A DNA stretch of 64,000 bases. Origin: Candidatus Heimdallarchaeota archaeon. GTDB lineage: Archaea > Asgardarchaeota > Heimdallarchaeia > Heimdallarchaeales > Heimdallarchaeaceae. Within the stretch, counting starts at the first letter, position 1; every line of letters starts with the position of its first letter. This document shows positions 26,311 through 37,369 of the stretch, piece after piece. The notes under the pieces were generated by a model. That model made no database searches. It was not told where the DNA came from and saw only the letters and a program-made list of their open reading frames with translations. Both the position numbers and the translations under genes were made by a program. The stretch lies in assembly GCA_018238545.1 (NCBI GenBank), contig JABCTC010000009.1, positions 30,709-94,708 on the forward strand. Reading direction: 5' to 3'.

Positions 26311-27354
26311 ATGAAGACTTACAAAATGGTAAAAAGTGCGTTTCCCGACTTCATTGAGTTAATCAAAACAAAAGGGAAACTGTTTGGACCAGTTAAACAA
26401 AAGAGTAAATACTCTTTTGAAGAAATCAGTGATGTAAAAGATCTTGATTTTGACTACCAACGTACAGTTTTGGGAGTGAAGAAATTCTTAACACCTCCAA
26501 AGTACAAAACCTTGACTTTCAATAAAGAAGGTACAAAGGACATTATTGACGAACCTGAAACAAATATTGTAATTGGAGTACATCCTTGTGACATTCATGC
26601 AGTTAAAATCTTGGATAGACTTTTCCTGGGTAATATAAAAGATCCTTATTATGCAAGTAGAAGAGAGAATTTGACAATTATCGGTCATTCTTGTCTTCCA
26701 GATGATAAATGTTTGTGCCAATCAACGGGAACAGATATGGTTGAGGATGGATTTGATCTCTTCTTAACAGAGTTAGACGATTACTATCTAGTTTGGGTAG
26801 GTTCTGACAAAGGTCTTGCTCTAACAATAGCAGCAAGTGATCTACTATCTGAAGATATTTCAGATGAAACTATAAGAGAATATGTCAGATGGCAACAAAA
26901 GCGTTCATCAATGTTCAAAACCGTTATGCCTTCATTCAAGTATATGGCGGATATTATAACTTTGAACTATGACAGTGAAATATGGGAACAATTTGGTGAA
27001 AAATGTTTGTCATGTGGGACTTGTAGTTTAGTTTGTCCGACCTGCAATTGTTTCAATGTTGACGATAAAATTCTAATGAATGCAGAAGAAGGGTTCCGTG
27101 AAAGAATGTTAGATAGCTGCACTTTACCATATTATTCGATGGTAGCTGGAGATCATGACTTCAGACCAGATAGAACAACAAGGTTGAAACTATATTATAC
27201 TCATAAACTCAAGGAATACATTGGACGATGGGGGCAGCCAGGTTGTGTCGGGTGCGGACGATGTGTAACATATTGTCCCGTTGATATCAATGTACTCACT
27301 GTCTCTGAAGCACTTTTTGGAGAAGTATGTGAAACAAAAGAGGTGTGTGAATAA
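26311..27354 (+). CDS. hydB: Group 3b [NiFe] hydrogenase (sulfhydrogenase) beta subunit, Fe-S
   Basis: HPCD, DPYY..RR, CLSCGTCSLVCPTCNCF, CVGCGRCVTYCP. Confidence 0.93.
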   Translation: MKTYKMVKSAFPDFIELIKTKGKLFGPVKQKSKYSFEEISDVKDLDFDYQRTVLGVKKFLTPPKYKTLTFNKEGTKDIIDEPETNIVIGVHPCDIHAVKILDRLFLGNIKDPYYASRRENLTIIGHSCLPDDKCLCQSTGTDMVEDGFDLFLTELDDYYLVWVGSDKGLALTIAASDLLSEDISDETIREYVRWQQKRSSMFKTVMPSFKYMADIITLNYDSEIWEQFGEKCLSCGTCSLVCPTCNCFNVDDKILMNAEEGFRERMLDSCTLPYYSMVAGDHDFRPDRTTRLKLYYTHKLKEYIGRWGQPGCVGCGRCVTYCPVDINVLTVSEALFGEVCETKEVCE

Positions 27355-28214
27355 TGATTGATGGAAAGGAATCAAAAATCGAAAATACATATAAATCACA
27401 TCCTGTAGAAATAATAGGAATTAAGAATTTAACAAGTGATACTAGATACTTCAAAGTTAGATGTATGACTGACGAGGTGAAAGACCAGTTCATTTACAAA
27501 CCAGGTCAATTTGTTTTATTCTCAATTCCTGGACTTGGAGAAGCACCATTTTCTATATCCTCTCCTCCTACAAGAAGAGATTTTATTGAGTTTGGAATTA
27601 GAAAAGTAGGAACATTTACTGAAGCGTTATTCAAGCTCAAAGAAGGAGACACATTTGAGATGAGAGGACCTTACGGTAACGGTTTTGATATGAAGAGTTT
27701 ACAAGGAAGAGACCTAATCATAATTGCAGGTGGGCTTGGAGCAGTTCCACTTAGATCTGCTTTGTTGTATGCTGAAGATAGAAGAGAAGAGTTCAATCAA
27801 GTATTCTTCTTAAATGGAGCACGTTCTCCAGACGATATGCTCTTTAGAGATGATTTCACGGCTATGGCAGCTAGAGGCATTCTTGACACAAGCCTTTCAG
27901 TTGACGAAGATCCTACAGGAGAATGGCCTTATGAAGTCGGTTTTGTAACAGCCTTAATTCCTAAACTAGTAGAAAAGATCAATTCTGAAAAAACTACTGC
28001 GTTAATTTGTGGTCCTCCTGTGATGTATAAGTTTGTTATTCAAGAATTGTTAAAATTAAACGTTCCAAAAGACCAAATCCTAATGACTTTAGAACGTAGA
28101 ATGAAATGTGGTCAAGGACACTGTGGTCATTGTGCAATTGGGGCCAGATATACCTGTCTAGATGGTCCTATCTTCACGTATTACGATGTACAACATATAA
28201 AGGAGTTAATCTAA
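27354..28214 (+). CDS. hydG: Group 3b hydrogenase gamma subunit, FAD/NAD(P) binding, [2Fe-2S]
   Basis: PGQF, RGPYGNGF, AGGLG, CGPPVM, RMKCGQGHCGHC..CLDGP. Confidence 0.93.
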   Translation: MIDGKESKIENTYKSHPVEIIGIKNLTSDTRYFKVRCMTDEVKDQFIYKPGQFVLFSIPGLGEAPFSISSPPTRRDFIEFGIRKVGTFTEALFKLKEGDTFEMRGPYGNGFDMKSLQGRDLIIIAGGLGAVPLRSALLYAEDRREEFNQVFFLNGARSPDDMLFRDDFTAMAARGILDTSLSVDEDPTGEWPYEVGFVTALIPKLVEKINSEKTTALICGPPVMYKFVIQELLKLNVPKDQILMTLERRMKCGQGHCGHCAIGARYTCLDGPIFTYYDVQHIKELI

Positions 28215-28215
28215 A

Positions 28216-29007
28216 ATGTGGAAAAGAGATAAAAAACCTGTTGTTGGTGTTTTTGGTTTTTCAGGATGTGCTGGTGATCAATTAGCTATACTTCACATGG
28301 AAGATAGTACGATTGATTTCTTCACAAGCGCTGATATCAAATTCTTCCATATGGCTCAATCTCATCAAGAAGTTCCAAAAGTTGATATTGCTCTTGTTGA
28401 AGGAAGTATTAATACTGAAAGACAATTAAAAGAACTTAAAGAAATTCGTGAGATGGCTGATGTTGTTGTAGCTCTCGGAACATGTGCTTGCTATGGTGGA
28501 ATTCAATATCTTGGTGAAGATGTAAAGACATTCAAAGAGCGAATGAAATATGTTTATGGAGAAAGTGGTGAAGTTCCAGAATTTTTAGATCTTGTAGGAA
28601 AACCCAGACCTGCTCAACCAATCAGTGAGTACATAGATGTAGATATTATGATTCCTGGCTGCCCAATTTCCGCTGAAAACTTTGTTCCAATTTATACAAA
28701 ATTGATAAGTGGATTATTACCTCAAAAGTATCCTATGCCAGTTTGTGTTGAATGTAAATATGAAGGAAACGATTGTTTCTTACTCCATGGAAAATACTGC
28801 TTAGGACCAGTAACCTCTGCAGGGTGTAATGCTATATGTCCCAGCATGGACATTTCCTGTGTTGGATGTTTTGGTACATACGAAGGTGCAAACTATCCTT
28901 CCATGATAAATAAATTAAAGGAAATTGGTTTGACTGAAGAAGAAGCAATTAGAAAATTGAAGCTGTTTGGTGGTAATAAAATTGAACAAGCGTTAAAAGG
29001 TGATTAA
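28216..29007 (+). CDS. hydD: Group 3b hydrogenase delta (small) subunit
   Basis: GCAGD, GTCACYGG, PGCP, VCVEC, CLGPVT..GC..CP..CVGC. Confidence 0.93.
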   Translation: MWKRDKKPVVGVFGFSGCAGDQLAILHMEDSTIDFFTSADIKFFHMAQSHQEVPKVDIALVEGSINTERQLKELKEIREMADVVVALGTCACYGGIQYLGEDVKTFKERMKYVYGESGEVPEFLDLVGKPRPAQPISEYIDVDIMIPGCPISAENFVPIYTKLISGLLPQKYPMPVCVECKYEGNDCFLLHGKYCLGPVTSAGCNAICPSMDISCVGCFGTYEGANYPSMINKLKEIGLTEEEAIRKLKLFGGNKIEQALKGD

Positions 29008-29008
29008 A

Positions 29009-30295
29009 ATGGCAGAAAAAACAATTAGTGTTGACGTTATTTCCCGAGTAGAAGGTGACGGAGGAATTCAAGTTTTTACTAAAGATGGCAAAGTGGATAA
29101 AGTCCTTGTTGATATCTTTGAAGGACCACGTATGATTGAAGCTCTTGTTAGAGGTAAAACATACACAGAAAATCTTTCCTTAGTCTCTCGTATCTGTGCA
29201 ATTTGTACAGTTTCTCATAGAAATGTTTCAATCAAAGCAATTGAAAAAGCTCTAAAAGTAAAGGTTCCTGAGAAAGTTAAACTACTTAGAGAACTTATGC
29301 ATCTTGCTGAATATGTAGAATCACACATTCTGCATGTTTACTATCTTGCAATACCTGATTTCTTCAAGCAACCATCTGCTATAGCATTATTGCCAACTCA
29401 TGGTGAAACTGTTATTCAAGCAGTTACAATGAAGAAGTATGGTACAGAGTTAATGCAACTTCTTATGGGTAGAAAGATACATGGAGAGAATCCTCAAATT
29501 GGTGGATTTGGACGAATACCTACAAACGAAGAATTAGATAAATTCCTTGAAAACGCTGCTGAATACCAATCCTGGGTATCAGGTATTATTGATCTAATGG
29601 CTACATTACCAATACCAGAATATGGAGTTAGAGATACTACTTTCATGTGTTGTAATCCTGCGGATGGTAAATTTGGTTTTGAGGGTGATACAATTCTTAT
29701 TTCTACAGGAGAGGAATATCCAGTAGAAGATTATAAGAAAATGACAAATGAAAGAGTTGTTCCTCACAGCTATGCTAAACGATCAAAATATCAAGATAAA
29801 CCATTTTCAGTTAGTGCTCTTGCAAGACTTGCTCTAATTGGTGATAGATTAACAGGTGAAGCAAAAGAGAAGTATGACAAATATTTCAACGAAAGCTGGA
29901 AGTTAAATCCGATATATAATAACTTATGTCAGGCAATTGAAGCGCTTTGGGCTTTTGAGCAAATACCAATTCTCATTGAAAAAATCAAAGCTTTACCCGA
30001 TCCAGAAATGGTTGTACCTGAGGTTTTAGATGGTACAGCGACTGCCGCAGTAGAAGCTCCAAGAGGTACTTTATATCATACATATGAAATCAAAGATGGG
30101 AAAATAGTCAATGCAGATATTATTACCCCTACTGCTCAATTCCTAGATGATATTGAAAAATATATTTGGGTAGCTGCGGAGAAGTTATTAGCGGAAGATA
30201 ATCCTGATACAGAACTACATTTAGAGATGATTGCTAGAGCTTATGATCCTTGTATATCATGCAGCTGTCATATGGTAAAATTGGTGAAAGAGTAA
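29009..30295 (+). CDS. hydA: Group 3b hydrogenase alpha (large, Ni-Fe) subunit
   Basis: RVEG, L1 RICAIC, EAPRG, L2 DPCISCSCH plus a short cleavable tail; AGGTGA RBS before ATG 29009. Confidence 0.96.
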   Translation: MAEKTISVDVISRVEGDGGIQVFTKDGKVDKVLVDIFEGPRMIEALVRGKTYTENLSLVSRICAICTVSHRNVSIKAIEKALKVKVPEKVKLLRELMHLAEYVESHILHVYYLAIPDFFKQPSAIALLPTHGETVIQAVTMKKYGTELMQLLMGRKIHGENPQIGGFGRIPTNEELDKFLENAAEYQSWVSGIIDLMATLPIPEYGVRDTTFMCCNPADGKFGFEGDTILISTGEEYPVEDYKKMTNERVVPHSYAKRSKYQDKPFSVSALARLALIGDRLTGEAKEKYDKYFNESWKLNPIYNNLCQAIEALWAFEQIPILIEKIKALPDPEMVVPEVLDGTATAAVEAPRGTLYHTYEIKDGKIVNADIITPTAQFLDDIEKYIWVAAEKLLAEDNPDTELHLEMIARAYDPCISCSCHMVKLVKE

Positions 30296-30760
30296 TTGCC
30301 TATACCCCTCCCTTTTTTTTCTTCTTCAGAAATTGAAAAATACGCCTTTATTTGTCTTGGAAATATCGATAGAGCTGACGATGCTTTTGGAATATTAGTA
30401 GGTGAAAAACTTAAAGAAGAATACCCAGAAAATGTTTTTTCTGAGTTAGACAACGACCTATCTGTTTTTCTATTCGATTTGATTGAAAATAAGCAAGTAC
30501 AGCACGTTTTTCTCATTGATGCCGTAGATTTTCATGGTAAACCTGGTGAAATCATCGTAAAAGACGATTTTGATACAAAAATAACACAAATATCAACTCA
30601 TACTATCCCTTATGAACAAATAAAGAACATCATTGAAGTGAAAGGTAAGAAATTTCATCTTATCGGAGCTCAAGTAAAGGATTTATCTTTTTTGGGTGAG
30701 GTTTCAACAGAGATTCTGGACGCAGTTGAAAAAGTAGTCGAGTTTTTCTTTAATGATTAA
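30296..30760 (+). CDS. hycI: Hydrogenase maturation endopeptidase
   Basis: GNIDRADDAFG, IDAVD, STHTIP; directly after hydA. Confidence 0.88.
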   Translation: MPIPLPFFSSSEIEKYAFICLGNIDRADDAFGILVGEKLKEEYPENVFSELDNDLSVFLFDLIENKQVQHVFLIDAVDFHGKPGEIIVKDDFDTKITQISTHTIPYEQIKNIIEVKGKKFHLIGAQVKDLSFLGEVSTEILDAVEKVVEFFFND

Positions 30761-30795: not shown

Positions 30796-32181
30796 TTGCA
30801 ATCAGATAAAAAAAAACGAACTCTCAATATTTTATCATATGCTTCATTAGCAATTTCAGGTGCTATACTCATTAATTTCTTTAATACGAGAATTTACAAT
30901 TTTTATACTGATGAAGTGAAACTAAATATTATTTATATTCCGATTGTTATGACCATCTATGCTATATGGAATGCAGTTAATGATCCATTATTTGGCTGGT
31001 TATCAGATAAAACACGGACTAGATTTGGAAGGAGATTCCCATATATATTATTTGGATTCATACCTCTAACGATAGCTTTTGTAGCTATTTGGTTTATACC
31101 AATATCCTTAGTTGAAAGTCTAAATCAAGTAAAGATTTTTCTATATTTTATTACAACTCTACTTATCTTTGATACTTTATACACAATTGTTATTCTTAAC
31201 TGGCAGACATTGTATGCTGAGAAATTTAAAACAACAAAAGAGAGAAACCTTGTTGCTGCATTGAGACAACTGATAGCTATCGTAGGTGTAATAGTATCAG
31301 TTGTAGTTGGCCCGTTGATTTTTGAATACAACAACCTTGAATCTTATCGTAGAGCCATTTTAATAATCGCAAGTTTTGTTCTTTTAGGTTTTGTTTTATC
31401 TATTTATGGATGCAGAGATAAAGAAATAATGAAAAACATTAAACCTCAAAGTAGGTCATACTTAGCTGAATTGAAAGAAGTTTTGAAAAATAAGAATTAT
31501 ATTGCTTTCCTATTTGCTTTTTGCTTTGCAAATATCGCTTATTTAACTCTTCTAGCCATGGTTCCTTATTTCAATAAATGGATACTAAATCAACCTGCAA
31601 AATTCGAAAGCTACATCTATGGGGCTGGAGTAGTAACTACAGCAATTTTCTTCATTGTTTGGGCAAGAGTGTCATTTAAAAAGGGTCCAAAAGTTGTTTT
31701 TATTACTAGTGCTACACTATTTTCATTAATATTAATACCATTATTCTTCTTTACTAGTGATTTAAGCACAATTGTACTTATGGGAATAATTGGTGCTCCT
31801 TTAGCTGGATTGATGCTTATTCCAGAGATTCTGATTGGAGAAATCATCGATGATGATTTTCACAAATACGGTAAAAACAGAGAAGGTATTTTCTTTGGTT
31901 TTTATGGTTTTGCTGTAAGAATTGCAATGATCTTGGAAGCAGTAGTGATTTCTTTAATACTTGGTTTGACAGGTTACAATGCAAATGCATACAAACAAAC
32001 TGATACAGCAATAATTGGAATTAAACTACTTATTGTAGTAGTACCAATAATTTGTTTTGTTGTTGGTATCATTTTAATGGCAAGTTTCTATGATCTTTCA
32101 AAAAAGAGAATCTTGAGGGAAAAAGCGAAACAATCAGATAAAGAAATTAAGAGTACCATAGTAATTGAAAATTATAAATAA
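30796..32181 (+). CDS. MFS glycoside-pentoside-hexuronide (MelB-like) symporter
   Basis: WNAVNDPLFGWLSDKTRTRFGRRFPY, REGIFFG, about 12 TM. Confidence 0.92.
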   Translation: MQSDKKKRTLNILSYASLAISGAILINFFNTRIYNFYTDEVKLNIIYIPIVMTIYAIWNAVNDPLFGWLSDKTRTRFGRRFPYILFGFIPLTIAFVAIWFIPISLVESLNQVKIFLYFITTLLIFDTLYTIVILNWQTLYAEKFKTTKERNLVAALRQLIAIVGVIVSVVVGPLIFEYNNLESYRRAILIIASFVLLGFVLSIYGCRDKEIMKNIKPQSRSYLAELKEVLKNKNYIAFLFAFCFANIAYLTLLAMVPYFNKWILNQPAKFESYIYGAGVVTTAIFFIVWARVSFKKGPKVVFITSATLFSLILIPLFFFTSDLSTIVLMGIIGAPLAGLMLIPEILIGEIIDDDFHKYGKNREGIFFGFYGFAVRIAMILEAVVISLILGLTGYNANAYKQTDTAIIGIKLLIVVVPIICFVVGIILMASFYDLSKKRILREKAKQSDKEIKSTIVIENYK

Positions 32182-32859
32182 TGTAAGAAATGCTACCCAA
32201 ATGAACAATCTACTTACATCCATCCATGTCATTTTTATTTTTCTGTAATGAGTTCTTTTTTGAATGCCAAACCCTCTGAAATATAGTGATTGAGCTAAGA
32301 ATTCAGATCTATAAATTACCGAAGCAATGAGAATTGCTAATGTTTTTGGTAACCAACGGTAAAAACCTCCTTGAATTTCACCTCTTAATCGTAAAGTGTT
32401 AAATGTGTCTTCAGAATCTTTGGCAATTCGAGGTATTATTACAAGAGCTAAGGAAGGTATCAGAACTACTTTTGAACCTACGTACAGTTTTTCTAAAGAT
32501 CTAGTAAGATCTGATGGGTTGGTGGAGGTAAAGAAAAAGGAAAAACCTATTGCTCCAATAAGGAATCTAGATAGTACTCGAAAACAGAGTATCCATCCTC
32601 CAAAAAGAAAAGTTAAACCACCAAGAATTATAATGACAGGTAGGAGTGACCATAGAATGCTAAGTGCTCCTCTAATATTTCTAAAGATTATATTTTCAAG
32701 AATAACAAATGAAAGGAGAAGTGCAAGAGACCAGTTGATATTAGGTATTAGAAAACCAAATTGTAGTAGAATAATTGTTAACCCAAGCAAAGGATGGATA
32801 TGAAACCTATCTGGTTTGAACAGAAATCCATCATATATTCTTCTCAACATAAAGGACAT
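32134..32859 (-). CDS. ecfT: ECF transporter T component
   Basis: TM helices, TNPSDL, coupling motifs LRG and FRG; downstream of the ECF ATPase. Confidence 0.85.
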   Translation of the reverse strand: MSFMLRRIYDGFLFKPDRFHIHPLLGLTIILLQFGFLIPNINWSLALLLSFVILENIIFRNIRGALSILWSLLPVIIILGGLTFLFGGWILCFRVLSRFLIGAIGFSFFFTSTNPSDLTRSLEKLYVGSKVVLIPSLALVIIPRIAKDSEDTFNTLRLRGEIQGGFYRWLPKTLAILIASVIYRSEFLAQSLYFRGFGIQKRTHYRKIKMTWMDVSRLFIWVAFLTLFIIFNYYGTLNFFI

Positions 32860-34500
32860 CTATCTAACACTCCTTAGAAATTCATTTACTTCATCTGTAT
32901 TTACGAAATGAGGTAATTCTAATTGGAATTGTTCTTCCATCATCTGGACGAAACAAACAATTTGATTTGGAATTAAGTCAGTTTTGTTTTCTAGTTCATA
33001 TAGAACTTTTCTTGGATCGCCGTCTAGACATATTTTACCATCTTGAATAACAATTAATCTATCTAGATCAACAAAAATCCTAGGATCATTAGAAGCCATA
33101 ATAACTGTCTTATTTCTAGCTGTAGCACTTTTAATTAGATTAGAAAGAATCTTTCTTCCCCGTCTATCTAAACCGATGGTTGGTTCATCAATTATGATAA
33201 TATCCTCTGCGAATTGGAATGCGTTCACAATAGCGAACAACCTTCTTTCTCCTTCACTTAAATGATACAGTTTCTTATTCATAAGGTGAGTTAATTTGGT
33301 TTCCTTATACAATGAGTGAATTGTTTTAGGTTCCTTAATAATACGGGATAAATCAAAGTAAGGCGTTGGGCCAATTAAAAACAGTTTAGCATTTTCAGGA
33401 ACTAAAATCACGTGATTTTTGCTTTTCCTTATGCTTTTGACTCGTAAATCATTAAGGTAAATCTCACCGCTTGCAGTTTTATTAATGCCTGAAATGACTT
33501 TCAGAAGAGTAGATTTTCCACTCCCATTAATACCCATCAATCCAATAGATTGACCAGCATACAAAGATAGATCTATGTCTTTCAGAATCATAGCTGTTTT
33601 GGAGTTATATCGAAAGTTAATATTGTCTAATCTAACTGAAACATCATTTTCATCACCTGCAATCTTCTTGTCGTTAGATTTGTTTTGACTCTCAGGTATG
33701 TTTGAAAAAAGAGCTCCACATTTATCAACTGCTTCCTCAATTAATAGTATTTGTTCTTCTGATGAACATTCGAGTGTAGATATTTCCGGAGGATCAATGT
33801 TCTTCAAGATATCAACCGTTTTCTTTGGTAATCCATCTGAAATTATTTTACCTTCATCGAGTATTATCAGTCTATCAGCTTTTTGTAATATGTAATCTAA
33901 TCGGTGTTCAAAAGCTATAACTAAATGACCTTTGTCTGCTATATCTCTTAACAATTCAGTTAGCATAACTTCAGATTTTGAATCAATTCTTGCAATAGGT
34001 TCATCGAGTATTATCAAGGGTGCTTCTGTTACAATCGCAACAGCCAAAGCTACTCGCTGCAACTCTCCAGAACTTAATTCAGTAATTAACCTTTTTTTCA
34101 GGTGTTTTATCTTTAGTAGATCAATAATAGAATCAAGTTTTTTATTAATTTCATTAGCTTCGATTGCAAGATTCTCTAAAACAAACGCTATCTCTTCTTC
34201 AACTAATAAAGATGTAGTAAAATCACTAGGATATTGAGGTACATATCCCAACAATTTAATCAATTTTTTTCTGTCCAAGCCAAATATAGATTCATCGTTA
34301 TATTCTATGATTCCATCAATATCTGCTTTAATGAAATTAGGTATCAAACTCATAAGTACATTTGCTAGAGTGCTTTTTCCACTCCCACTTGGACCAGCAA
34401 TAACAATGAATTCACCAGCTTTTGCATCAATATTTACAGAATTGAGAGCATAACTCTTCTCTGATTGATATTTGACTGATAAATCCCTTATATGGAGCAT
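32860..34500 (-). CDS. ecfA: ECF transporter fused double ATPase
   Basis: GPSGSGKS/LSSGE/LDEP and GINGSGKS/LSEGE/IDEP. Confidence 0.92.
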   Translation of the reverse strand: MLHIRDLSVKYQSEKSYALNSVNIDAKAGEFIVIAGPSGSGKSTLANVLMSLIPNFIKADIDGIIEYNDESIFGLDRKKLIKLLGYVPQYPSDFTTSLLVEEEIAFVLENLAIEANEINKKLDSIIDLLKIKHLKKRLITELSSGELQRVALAVAIVTEAPLIILDEPIARIDSKSEVMLTELLRDIADKGHLVIAFEHRLDYILQKADRLIILDEGKIISDGLPKKTVDILKNIDPPEISTLECSSEEQILLIEEAVDKCGALFSNIPESQNKSNDKKIAGDENDVSVRLDNINFRYNSKTAMILKDIDLSLYAGQSIGLMGINGSGKSTLLKVISGINKTASGEIYLNDLRVKSIRKSKNHVILVPENAKLFLIGPTPYFDLSRIIKEPKTIHSLYKETKLTHLMNKKLYHLSEGERRLFAIVNAFQFAEDIIIIDEPTIGLDRRGRKILSNLIKSATARNKTVIMASNDPRIFVDLDRLIVIQDGKICLDGDPRKVLYELENKTDLIPNQIVCFVQMMEEQFQLELPHFVNTDEVNEFLRSVR

Positions 34501-34533
34501 TATAATCCTCAGTGATTGGTAGATATTAAAAAT

Positions 34534-35382
34534 TTAACTTGACGTTTCTTTTTGTACTTCTTCTTCTGTTACATTTTCATCGTTAATTATATCAGAATGA
34601 ATCACACCTAATTCTCTTAGATATGATACGATGGGAATTGCAATTGCAGCTCCAAATATAACTTGTGCAATATTGAATGGGATTTCAAGAGCAACTAAAG
34701 TTGGATCATAACTAAGAATGTAGATTTCATATAAGTAATAACCTATAACAATTATAATCCCACCTAGACTACAAGAAAGTGCCATTTCGCCTTTTTCTTT
34801 GAGTAGGACAAGTACTAGTATAATTATAGCACTCAGAATAATAGAAAAGATCAGAAATACATAACCTGGAATGTTAATTGAAAATTCTCCTGCATTATAA
34901 AATGAGAAGCCAATGGTAAATGTTTGAGTAGTTAGAAATGCAGAAAAACCAATTAAGAATGAGCACACTATTCCGATAAATACATACTTTAGCCAATCAT
35001 AAACTCTTCTGCTATAATGGAATAGAAGTCCAACCACAAAACCTTCAAGAAACTTTAGTATTGCCGTTGCTGGAGCAAAATGGCCAAATCCTAAAGCTAA
35101 ATCTGCCATTGAAGCACCTAATCCTCCTGCAATTGCCCCAGTTATTGGACCACCAATCAATGCAGCCAAATAAACAAAAGCTTCTCCTATGTTAAAAAAT
35201 CCATTTGAAGCTGGAATGTAAATGAAGAAAATTGATGTAGATAGGAATACCAGCGCTGTAAAAGATACAATCAATGCAATCCCACGTATAGAAGAGACTT
35301 CTTTTAGAATTTTATTTTTTAATAAATTATCTTGATTAGACAGATTTGTTTCTTGATTAAGGCTATCTTCATTTATACTCAC
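34534..35382 (-). CDS. ECF transporter S component, HmpT/PdxU2-like (vitamin B6 candidate)
   Basis: GFFNIGEAFVYLAAL..GAIAGGLGASMADL..APATAILK and EIPFNIAQV; GGTGAG RBS; substrate is an inference. Confidence 0.85.
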   Translation of the reverse strand: MSINEDSLNQETNLSNQDNLLKNKILKEVSSIRGIALIVSFTALVFLSTSIFFIYIPASNGFFNIGEAFVYLAALIGGPITGAIAGGLGASMADLALGFGHFAPATAILKFLEGFVVGLLFHYSRRVYDWLKYVFIGIVCSFLIGFSAFLTTQTFTIGFSFYNAGEFSINIPGYVFLIFSIILSAIIILVLVLLKEKGEMALSCSLGGIIIVIGYYLYEIYILSYDPTLVALEIPFNIAQVIFGAAIAIPIVSYLRELGVIHSDIINDENVTEEEVQKETSS

Positions 35383-35400
35383 AGTCTCACCAGCAGAAAT

Positions 35401-35440
35401 ATATTCAAGTTACAACTTGTATATTCCTATAAAACCTTTT
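35401..35440 (-). promoter_or_regulatory. ECF operon promoter (AAAAGG-TTTTATA) followed by a 24-bp operator palindrome
   Basis: ATATTCAAGTT-AC-AACTTGTATAT at 35401-35424 (10 of 11 pairs); BRE/TATA-like element on the minus strand at 35428-35440. Confidence 0.75.
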
Positions 35441-35579
35441 AGGTGGATATTTGAGGAAAAGAGAAGAAGAGAGAGTCATGATTTTCTAATTTTTGTACTG
35501 ATGAGAAAATACTTTCCTTACTTTAATTTATTAAAGGATAACCTATTCATATATCTGAAAAAAGATAGTATTGAGTATT

Positions 35580-35924
35580 ATGAAAAATAAGAAACTACTC
35601 ACTGGTATTAGTTTTCTAGTACTACTAGTTTTAGCTACACAGATTTCAATGATTGGATATGCTGATGAAACAGTAATTGTAAGAGATTTTGATAGAGATC
35701 GAGAACAATATCAAGATGGTACATGTGAAGATCCTAACGAAAATAATTACAATAGTACAATTATCCCTCCTGAAACAAGTAATGGTAATGATACATGTAT
35801 CCCCCCTGGAGACGGAGATCAGATAAGAGAAAGAGATCGCATTAGGGATCAACTTCAAGATGGAACCTGTAATTGTACTTGTATTTGTGAACAAGATGGA
35901 GTTAAAGTACAACTTCAGTTATAA
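35580..35924 (+). CDS. Small secreted Cys/Asp/Arg-rich protein with a duplicated RDR..QDGTC motif
   Basis: Signal peptide MKNKKLL..; DRDREQYQDGTC and RDRIRDQLQDGTCNCTCIC. Confidence 0.75.
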   Translation: MKNKKLLTGISFLVLLVLATQISMIGYADETVIVRDFDRDREQYQDGTCEDPNENNYNSTIIPPETSNGNDTCIPPGDGDQIRERDRIRDQLQDGTCNCTCICEQDGVKVQLQL

Positions 35925-35986
35925 GATGGAAGTTGCTAATTGTAAAACAAATAATCCAATTATTTTTTCTTTTATTGTTTCTTAAA

Positions 35987-37330
35987 TCAAAGATAATCTA
36001 TCAGATTTCTCATATTATCCAAAGTGTCTAGACCTTTTCTTGTTAATTCAAAATGTTTTCTTCTAGCTTCCTTCTCGCTGGGAGAAATCAACCCCTTTTC
36101 TTCTAATTCTGTTAGGTGCTGATAGATTGATTGTAGAGATTGATTTTTACCTAAAGAAATCCAAATGGAATAGCCATAATCAGCTTTTTTACCAGCTATA
36201 AGATTGAGAATTTCAAACTTTGTAGTTGAGCTTTCCGATAATCCCCAAACAACCTTCTTCTTTCCTCTTAATCTAGCAGCGTAAACATTTAGTGTACTTA
36301 ATCCAGATCCTGACAAGATTGCAATACTAGATTTTGAATCTATTAACCCTTCTTTAATGAGATTTTTAGCAGCAACTAATACTGAGGCTGAGGCTGGTTC
36401 AATAAACAAACCTTCCTTTTTAGCTAAAATCATAGCTTCATCTAGCATAGACTCTGCGTCGATTTCTATCTCTTTCCCTTTTGTTCTTTGAATTATTTTT
36501 TTCACTTCTTCCAAAAGAAATACTTTCGTAATCTCTAGTGATTCTGCTAAATGAGCTACTTTTGTTTTTTCTAATGATACAGCGTAAATTTTTGGATATT
36601 CTGTAATCCACCCTGAAGCAATTGCATCTTCAAAGCCCCTAAAAATGGAATAAATTAAAGATCCTGAACCTCTTGGCACTAGTATACTATCTATTGTGTC
36701 TTTCTGTAAGACTAGTTCTAGACCAATTGTTTTCTGGCCTTCAATAGTTAGAAGGTTGTTATCTGGAGATGCATGATATGCGTTGTGATTCTCTGCAACT
36801 ACGAACGAATATTCAATAGCAGCTTCAACTGATTCACCTTTTTCAATAATCTGACTTCCATATATTTTGATTTGTTCTATTTTTGAAAGTTCAAGATTTT
36901 GTGGAATAACACTTATAGAGTCGATTTTAGCTTTTGCAGCATAAGCTGCAAGACTAATACTAAAAGCCCCAGTGCTGGCACCAACAATAGTTTGTGATTT
37001 GTTCTGATATGCATCAGAAACTAGTAAAGAGCTTGCTCTATCTCTAAAAGAGCCAGTAGGATTTCTGAAGTCGAGCTTTAAGCTTAAGTCTTGATAATCA
37101 CTTATGTTTTTGACAGGTAATAAGGGAGTATTCCCCTCAAAAAGAGAAATTGGTTTGGAAAAATCTGGAAGAAAAGAATGCAAAGACCACATTGAGGATA
37201 AACTGATACTATTAAGTGACGGTCCACTAATTGGAGGAATAGCAACTAATCCTTTACAGTTTGGACACCGTAATTGTGTATCTTTGAAAGTTTTTCCACA
37301 ATCCTTACATGTCGGTTGATTCTTCCACAT
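35987..37330 (-). CDS. Threonine-synthase-fold PLP protein lacking the catalytic Lys, fused to a C-terminal PadR-like winged helix
   Basis: Zn ribbon CKDC..CPNC, EGNTPL, NPTGSF-R-DR, EGQKT, VPRGSG, EPASA, SGSG; tail YGYSIW..QSIYQHLTELEEKGLI..RRKHFELTRKG. Confidence 0.9.
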   Translation of the reverse strand: MWKNQPTCKDCGKTFKDTQLRCPNCKGLVAIPPISGPSLNSISLSSMWSLHSFLPDFSKPISLFEGNTPLLPVKNISDYQDLSLKLDFRNPTGSFRDRASSLLVSDAYQNKSQTIVGASTGAFSISLAAYAAKAKIDSISVIPQNLELSKIEQIKIYGSQIIEKGESVEAAIEYSFVVAENHNAYHASPDNNLLTIEGQKTIGLELVLQKDTIDSILVPRGSGSLIYSIFRGFEDAIASGWITEYPKIYAVSLEKTKVAHLAESLEITKVFLLEEVKKIIQRTKGKEIEIDAESMLDEAMILAKKEGLFIEPASASVLVAAKNLIKEGLIDSKSSIAILSGSGLSTLNVYAARLRGKKKVVWGLSESSTTKFEILNLIAGKKADYGYSIWISLGKNQSLQSIYQHLTELEEKGLISPSEKEARRKHFELTRKGLDTLDNMRNLIDYL

Positions 37331-37369
37331 TATTACCAACAATTAGTATGATAAAATATAATGTTATTG

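Follow-up and report, generated by a model that had tools for sequence, protein, structure and literature searches.

A fusion protein of 447 residues, encoded on the minus strand at 35987..37330 of the 64,000-nucleotide stretch of Candidatus Heimdallarchaeota DNA analysed here (the window), is very probably a one-component repressor of vitamin B6 supply, predicted from its sequence context to act through a palindrome ahead of an ECF importer operon and to carry a vitamer-sensing pocket. It is best read as a putative equivalent, in Archaea, of bacterial PdxR, with a different fold as its base. It likely represents a widespread family of archaeal B6 regulators that would have arisen from threonine synthase independently of PdxR, sense phosphorylated vitamers without a Schiff base, and repress both pdxST and an ECF importer with a lysine in its pocket; the distribution we assign to this family, with equal confidence, takes in Asgard archaea, Thermococcales, Bathyarchaeia and Nitrososphaerota.

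The regulator, whose gene bears the label "threonine synthase", combines an N-terminal zinc ribbon, a threonine-synthase domain of PLP fold type II and a C-terminal PadR-like winged helix; its ATG start yields the 447 residues, and an alternative TTG at 37342 would yield 451. Both the Pfam PALP domain (PF00291, E 1e-50) and the PadR domain (PF03551, 29.8 bits against a cut-off of 27, E 6e-7) score over their cut-offs, bearing out the fusion that the initial annotation had read from the letters. The winged helix (36020..36211, minus strand) holds a conserved YQHL recognition-helix motif, with Q404 in 82/85 and H405 in 84/85 fusions, and the C-terminus adopts a helix-helix-strand-strand-helix arrangement in the predicted structure (pLDDT 88.8), for which the top Foldseek matches are threonine synthases (E 7e-23). 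The best-scoring profile is PRK05638, at 282.6 bits under a curated cut-off of 421, and TIGR00260 (threonine synthase) gives 98.5 bits, below its cut-off of 167.1. The zinc ribbon (CxxC-x10-CxxC, Cys8/11/22/25; 37256..37309, minus strand) is an addition to the domains listed earlier; among 42 homologues C11 and C25 are invariant and C8 and C22 are kept in at least 90%. A homodimer model scored 0.87 against 0.00 for the best control, with pLDDT of at least 85 and at least 60% of contacts shared between runs, by a mark that was passed by 20 of 30 pairs with solved structures and by 1 of 23 single chains. This result may mirror no more than resemblance to threonine synthase dimers of solved structure, and the confident interface does not include the winged helices.

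At the position of the Schiff-base lysine, the motif NPTGSFKDR reads NPTGSFRDR, with an AGA codon for Arg96 at 37043..37045 (minus strand), as first noted. In contigs from two runs, each belonging to a different study, the codon is unchanged; one (X1) may be the source of this DNA and the other (X2) comes from a separate study. Homologues encode arginine here as AGA, AGG, CGA or CGT. Because several codons are in use and the contigs of both runs agree, we ruled out a sequencing error, including the AAA that reads might have revealed. The other loops called at the outset, ASTGA, VPRGSG, EPASA and SGSG, are all present, and the glycine-rich cofactor-phosphate loop PRGSGS (residues 219-224; 36659..36676, minus strand) contains G221 and G223, which together with E311, D97 and R98 are invariant among 85 fusions.

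Across these fusions arginine or another non-lysine residue is the rule, as had been anticipated for homologues carrying the winged helix: the position is non-lysine in 76/85 fusions, a count whose independence, like that of the other counts given here, is overstated by kinship among the genomes, as against 0/72 true threonine synthases, the control set that made up the bulk of what the related-locus search returned. The remaining 9/85, all from one Asgard clade, have lysine at the Schiff-base position, and they have kept or regained it, which counts against the best reading. The proposal of a pseudoenzyme by lysine loss thus fits the regulator in the window, but since a lysine-bearing clade exists it does not define the family. 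The substrate-phosphate arginine, found in 57/73 of the non-fusion set, falls outside the six commonest residues at its position in the fusions, which account for 80/85 of them, and the regulator has Thr195 where threonine synthases carry this arginine before EGQKT. The asparagine of ASTGN normally contacts the PLP ring hydroxyl in threonine synthase; among the 85 fusions the position is Asn in 59, Ser in 22 and Ala in one, the regulator itself, and Ala122 could weaken or alter PLP binding, a further point against the best reading. In a quick, midpoint-rooted tree, 33 true synthases are set apart from the fusions with a support of only 90, and the Thermococcales members fall among the fusions. 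The Arg-containing "threonine synthases" of Thermococcales mentioned at the outset turn out to be PRK05638 proteins, and these belong to the fusion family because all 14 members examined have the arginine and the winged helix. The fusion gene is carried by 25 of 41 Thermococcales genomes searched and by the cultured Promethearchaeum syntrophicum.

These residues bear on an alternative in which operator binding and B6 control are kept and the signal is a PLP-amino acid adduct or an amino acid bound alongside PLP, in the manner of GabR, or comes from a trigger enzyme with residual catalysis. We consider it improbable: conservation of D97, R98, K150 and E197 as in true synthases speaks for it, as does the lysine clade, which adjoins the same S gene and site, but R, I, L, N or S can occupy the lysine position of the fusions, the substrate-phosphate arginine and the Asn-Ser pair are lost, the targets are genes of B6 uptake and synthesis and not amino-acid genes, and the source genome holds seven other PALP-family matches, two of them threonine-synthase-like with the lysine.

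Downstream on the same strand, as initially described, lies a full ECF operon comprising an S component of 282 residues (34534..35382; HmpT/PdxU2-like, PF07155), a fused A-A' ATPase of 546 residues (32860..34500) and a T component of the CbiQ family of 241 residues (32134..32859), identified by profile matches and, for S, also by a PDB relative; the three share a single operon, the organisation of a Group I ECF transporter. The S gene starts at a GTG preceded by a ribosome-binding site, GGTGAG (35386..35391, minus strand), and a predicted BRE/TATA element (AAAAGG-TTTTATA; 35428..35440, minus strand) recurs in similar form and at equal distance in genus-level orthologues. Because the 605-bp gap between regulator and importer genes holds an opposite-strand ORF of 117 residues (35571-35924), we regard the two as separate units; co-transcription is ruled out by this ORF and by the separate promoter in between. 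The likeness of the S component to the HmpT/PdxU2 type is supported, its sole PDB relative being HmpT/PdxU2 of Lactobacillus brevis (4HZU_S, E 4e-6), which was extracted with pyridoxamine as ligand (PMC4860826). The S component differs from this relative in being longer and in sharing its operon with dedicated A-A' and T genes. Four of six pocket residues are identical to those of HmpT (Glu41, Tyr120, Asn140, Gln143), and two, counting against the best reading, are not: His84 is replaced by Lys and Gln87 by Glu, in 146/146 and 145/146 S homologues, respectively.

Linkage extends the picture beyond this genome. Outside Thermococcales, an S gene or pdxS lies within 3 kb of the fusion gene at 54/71 loci, as against 0/72 for true synthases, in divergent, convergent and tandem layouts, so that the expected co-localisation with pdxST or B6 importer genes is found there; the identity of the pdxST neighbours is over cut-off. 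In a congener (L035) pdxST occupies the place of the ECF operon and is preceded by the same site, and in another genome (L190) a single site heads an S-pdxS-pdxT operon. The original suggestion of a regulator of B6 uptake is supported by importer linkage and site, and the regulon is wider, taking in pdxST synthesis in other genomes; as judged from predicted sites and linkage, it comprises pdxST and a B6 transporter, as does that of MocR/PdxR. In Thermococcales no B6 gene was found within 1.5 kb of the regulator. Very unlikely, in our judgement, is a reading in which regulator and site are real but importer and signal serve some other metabolite, for example the thiamine precursor HMP: the S components in PF07155 differ in specificity, the name HmpT originally referred to HMP (PMC4860826) and two pocket residues deviate, but pdxST genes of several lineages have this site ahead of them, S and pdxST share an operon in L190, no thiamine gene recurs among the clustered neighbours of fusion loci, and the sensor domain has a PLP-binding fold.

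The predicted 22-bp operator (35402..35423; consensus TATWCAAGTT-N2-AACTTGWATA) lies within the strong palindrome described earlier at 35401-35424, in which 10/11 positions pair; it begins 4-5 bp after the TATA box and spans the predicted start site (inferred at about 35405). The 3.63-Mb genome contains a single copy of the 14-bp core, and a matrix trained on other genomes, without the source genome, ranks the site first there, at 31.5 bits against 19.8 for the next. That runner-up (C37:24003) was rejected as a second target: an ArsR gene adjoins it in 8/8 orthologous loci, and six of these score below 13 bits. The only operator target found in the source genome is thus the ECF importer; ahead of the regulator gene the matrix scan gave none, and autoregulation there was discarded. 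A sigma-70 promoter scan was set aside as inapplicable to Archaea. Because the operator sits just downstream of the TATA box, we favour repression. Some bacterial PdxR proteins are known to activate pdxST when PLP is absent. RbkR has likewise been suggested to be an activator (PMC5397151), but the RbkR sites in Sulfolobus lie upstream of promoter elements, whereas in Asgard and Thermococcales loci the present site follows the TATA box and overlaps the predicted start, and activation appears highly improbable.

The suggested genome scan for CAAGTT-N2-AACTTG bore fruit: the palindrome is conserved ahead of S and pdxS genes, and its occurrence follows that of the regulator. Searching 300 genomes with two mismatches allowed proved too permissive, controls matching equally often, and near-exact matches alone were carried forward. 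Operator-like sites are also found ahead of S or pdxS genes that show no linkage to the regulator (L155, L160, L162, L167, L173, L192, L207), and 11 pdxS genes from two regulator-free families score at most 4.4 bits. Among Thermococcales, 17 loci from regulator-bearing genomes range from 2.9 to 21.1, as against -9.2 to 2.0 for nine loci from regulator-free genomes. One exception counts against the best reading: a 17-bit site at one pdxS in a 75% complete genome (G252) in which the regulator was not found. That another factor binds the palindrome and the fusion gene is a mere neighbour is scarcely credible, for although contact between palindrome and regulator is a prediction and the regulator gene has no upstream site in the source genome, the site tracks the regulator in Thermococcales despite the distance to B6 genes, and no other DNA-binding gene recurs at fusion loci.

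Under the repressor reading, the regulator would dimerise via its threonine-synthase domains, as modelled, and its two winged helices would grip the palindrome between the TATA box and the S-A-T start, blocking initiation. The old cofactor pocket would hold a phosphorylated B6 vitamer non-covalently, most likely PLP, perhaps PMP or PNP; judging from site position and target function, occupancy of the pocket most likely strengthens DNA binding, and uptake would then stop at plentiful B6. In relatives the same site would control pdxST, or both pdxST and the importer. Neither pdxS nor a pyridoxal-kinase-type gene over cut-off was found in the source genome (92% complete), and the lack of a kinase match leaves a gap between import and PLP, which also weighs against the best reading. 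Speculatively, and with considerable doubt, we suggest that in genomes without pdxS or a recognisable pyridoxal kinase the importer carries the phosphorylated cofactor itself or an unrecognised kinase exists.

The nearest relatives in fold and sequence are threonine synthases (ThrC; PDB 6CGQ, 3AEY), whose domain forms the regulator's modelled dimer; unlike them, the regulator lacks the Schiff-base lysine and the substrate-phosphate arginine and has an extra DNA-binding domain. PRK05638 shares the zinc ribbon, the PALP domain with arginine and the C-terminal winged helix, and differs in that the regulator stays below its cut-off (283 bits against 421); from this architecture, its "threonine synthase" name appears to be a misannotation. 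ThiR is an enzyme-derived regulator that likewise joins cofactor-handling and DNA-binding domains and controls the synthesis and uptake genes of one vitamin, in its case not B6, with another fold and an N-terminal helix. The name ThiR is in use for an archaeal vitamin regulator (PMC10746257). RbkR similarly fuses a cofactor-handling to a DNA-binding domain and governs synthesis and uptake of one vitamin, but that vitamin and the fold are others, its helix is N-terminal, its kinase is active and its sites lie upstream of the promoter (PMC5397151). MocR/PdxR also joins a PLP-enzyme domain to a winged helix, with a core regulon of pdxST and a B6 transporter; its enzyme-like part resembles aminotransferases (fold type I), its GntR helix is N-terminal, and Archaea are stated to lack it (PMC5320631). 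The regulator instead pairs fold type II (PALP) with a C-terminal PadR-like helix and one 22-bp palindrome, and its family is mostly without the Schiff-base lysine; by these sequence features the fusion family is an independent solution.

Few B6 transporters have been verified (PMC9997740), and in the literature searched, which covered few subscription papers, we found no description of the fusion family or of an archaeal B6 regulator; for Archaea, regulators of vitamins B1 and B2 have been described. The present candidate comes with protein, operator and targets and is thus directly testable. It corrects the PRK05638 label, which can mislead metabolic reconstructions, and offers a B6 assignment for a large group of archaeal ECF importers. 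If true, a PLP enzyme would have given rise to a PLP sensor a second time, independently, with a different fold and no covalent bond.

The gene at window 35987-37330 (minus strand) encodes a 447-residue protein that is not a threonine synthase. It combines a zinc ribbon whose four cysteines are evident in the homologue alignment, a PALP domain (Pfam, E 1e-50) and, at the C-terminus, a PadR-like winged helix, which the initial annotation had reported and which scores above the Pfam cut-off. Its structure is predicted with confidence (mean pLDDT 88.8), threonine synthases are its top structural and sequence matches, and its nearest named homologues come from Heimdallarchaeaceae. Residue 96, aligned with the Schiff-base lysine, is the arginine originally read there (AGA, 37043-37045); that it is real follows from the four different codons encoding this Arg among homologues and from a codon unchanged in contigs from two studies.

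The close relatives, about 95, are Asgard proteins of equal length, and all those that the search pattern matched share the Arg motif. The protein itself retrieved matches in 102 of 300 Asgard genomes (threshold E 1e-40) and a profile search in 167 of 300, the weaker ones including true synthases; Bathyarchaeia and Nitrososphaerota also have fusions, and NCBIfam PRK05638, named threonine synthase, matches 25 of 41 Thermococcales genomes, with Arg and winged helix in 14/14 members examined. Across 85 aligned fusions the Schiff-base position reads R 51, I 14, K 9, L 8, N 2 and S 1, vs K in 72/72 true synthases (the sole Ile row among the non-fusions comes from a fusion truncated at its locus end). 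Of the proposed conservation of Arg, what holds is that 76 of the 85 have Arg or some residue other than Lys. The same fusions are without the substrate-phosphate Arg and Asn-Ser pair of true synthases and keep invariant phosphate-loop glycines, Glu311, Asp97 and Arg98, the residue roles being those of threonine synthase. In the tree the nine Lys-bearing fusions form one Asgard clade nested among Arg-bearing ones, which suggests reversion. Loss of the covalent cofactor link does not define the family, and the link is, judging from sequence, dispensable within it. In the Lys-bearing clade (L060, L066, L068, L246-L251) the S gene of the importer described below adjoins the regulator, and sites are mostly tandem.

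We consider it very probable that the protein is a B6 repressor acting as a dimer: its two winged helices would bind two operator half-sites and block initiation, and a phosphorylated B6 vitamer, most likely PLP, would sit non-covalently in the old cofactor pocket as co-repressor. The sequences show anatomy, catalytic-residue loss, linkage, motif conservation and co-occurrence, which support this mechanism. A homodimer modeled through the enzyme domains scores 0.87 (best control 0.00, pLDDT at least 85) and passes a mark that 20/30 solved pairs and 1/23 single chains reached; this could simply reflect resemblance to threonine synthase dimers of known structure. It is unlikely that the signal is an adduct or that the regulator acts as a trigger enzyme: the nine fusions with lysine speak for this reading, the loss of the substrate-phosphate Arg and Asn-Ser pair against it.

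Downstream lie genes for an ECF importer, S (34534-35382), fused A-A' (32860-34500) and T (32134-32859), all on the minus strand, a set that domain identification confirmed. The second ATPase domain of A-A' apparently has Asn for the H-loop His (ASNDP) and, by its sequence, may be degenerate. An opposite-strand 117-aa ORF (35571-35924, +) separates regulator and importer, so the ECF genes form their own unit; this ORF has a hydrophobic N-terminus, short DRDR/CTC-type repeats and no Pfam match. In 10 loci from the genus it occupies this place between the regulator gene and the importer operon, and the operator lies in the divergent intergenic region next to it. The same S gene recurs in 26 of the first 43 regulator loci examined, pdxS/pdxT in four others, all without S; S adjoins the regulator in 18/20 further Asgard loci and is close to it in both cultured-lineage records checked. 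Outside Thermococcales, S or pdxS lies within 3 kb in 54/71 fusion loci vs 0/72 true synthases, which bears out the predicted co-localization. Layouts vary (divergent, convergent, tandem), so inherited gene order alone does not account for the linkage; in the congener L035 pdxST occupies the spot of the ECF operon, and locus L190 has a single unit ordered S, pdxS, pdxT. Many Heimdallarchaeaceae loci also have a hydrogenase operon of group 3b type, including a maturation protease, close to the regulator (here at 26400-30760), in what looks like plain synteny.

Among solved structures the S component has a single relative, HmpT/PdxU2 (4HZU_S), from which pyridoxamine was extracted (PMC4860826). 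Four of six conserved HmpT pocket residues are identical and near-invariant across 146 homologues, whereas His84 is Lys in 146/146 and Gln87 is Glu in 145/146; the substrate is likely a B6 vitamer of some kind, and one other than B6 is quite improbable. The source genome, 92% complete, yielded no pdxS and has one PF07155 gene, and thus probably depends on B6 uptake; pdxS was found in only 46/300 Asgard genomes searched. No pyridoxal-kinase-family gene exceeds the cut-off in this genome, leaving a pathway hole. A glycerate-2-kinase-like (MOFRL) gene, speculatively a candidate for the missing kinase, adjoins the regulator in L054, L061, L063 and L065, once directly after S, and has a 31% homologue elsewhere in the source genome (L280:2815-4215). 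A HypE/ThiL-like (AIR-synthase fold) gene after regulator and S in one Bathyarchaeia genome (L092:8045-9052) is another possible candidate.

The palindrome noted before S is found again, in various Asgard lineages, upstream of S genes and of pdxS. With a 22-bp matrix trained without the source genome (consensus TATWCAAGTT-N2-AACTTGWATA), window 35402-35423 ranks first there, at 31.5 bits vs 19.8 for the next site. The latter (G000:C37:24003) was rejected as a second target, since an ArsR gene adjoins in every orthologous locus; its conserved TAAGTATATRCTTA element (L279:2503-2524), between that gene and one for a 253-aa membrane protein of no assigned function, is likely an ArsR operator. The operator starts 4-5 bp downstream of a BRE/TATA element, itself conserved, and spans the predicted start, and activation instead of repression is very improbable. 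Three tests reach beyond the training set. In genomes whose regulator gene lies elsewhere, strong sites still precede the S or pdxS genes unlinked to it; eleven pdxS genes of two regulator-free families score at most 4.4 bits, and one exception, at 17 bits, lies in a 75%-complete genome where the regulator was not found; and in Thermococcales, whose regulator genes have no B6 gene within 1.5 kb, the 14-bp core at S/pdxS loci scores 2.9 to 21.1 in genomes with the regulator (17 loci) vs -9.2 to 2.0 in genomes without it (9 loci), a complete separation whose rank test (2e-5) is overstated since the genomes are kin. Occupancy of the palindrome by another factor is the least credible alternative. 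In most Thermococcales S follows a PLP-dependent class III aminotransferase gene (PRK05769), and an operator and TATA box separate the two genes only in genomes that have the regulator (L259-L278).

The source genome also holds an RbkR-like gene, a helix-turn-helix fused to a CTP-dependent riboflavin kinase (L280:1384-2738, contig C74), followed by a cytidylyltransferase-like gene, probably an FAD synthetase. Our literature search, of partial coverage so that an earlier mention is possible, found no description of the regulator family, and the portions seen of a 2023 survey of PLP pathways name only bacterial regulators (PMC9997740). Archaea are stated to lack MocR proteins, and bacterial PdxR regulons center on pdxST and a transporter (PMC5320631); the protein described here lacks the MocR/PdxR architecture but would work like PdxR on a candidate regulon of pdxST and a transporter, and it parallels RbkR (PMC5397151) and ThiR as a vitamin regulator derived from an enzyme.
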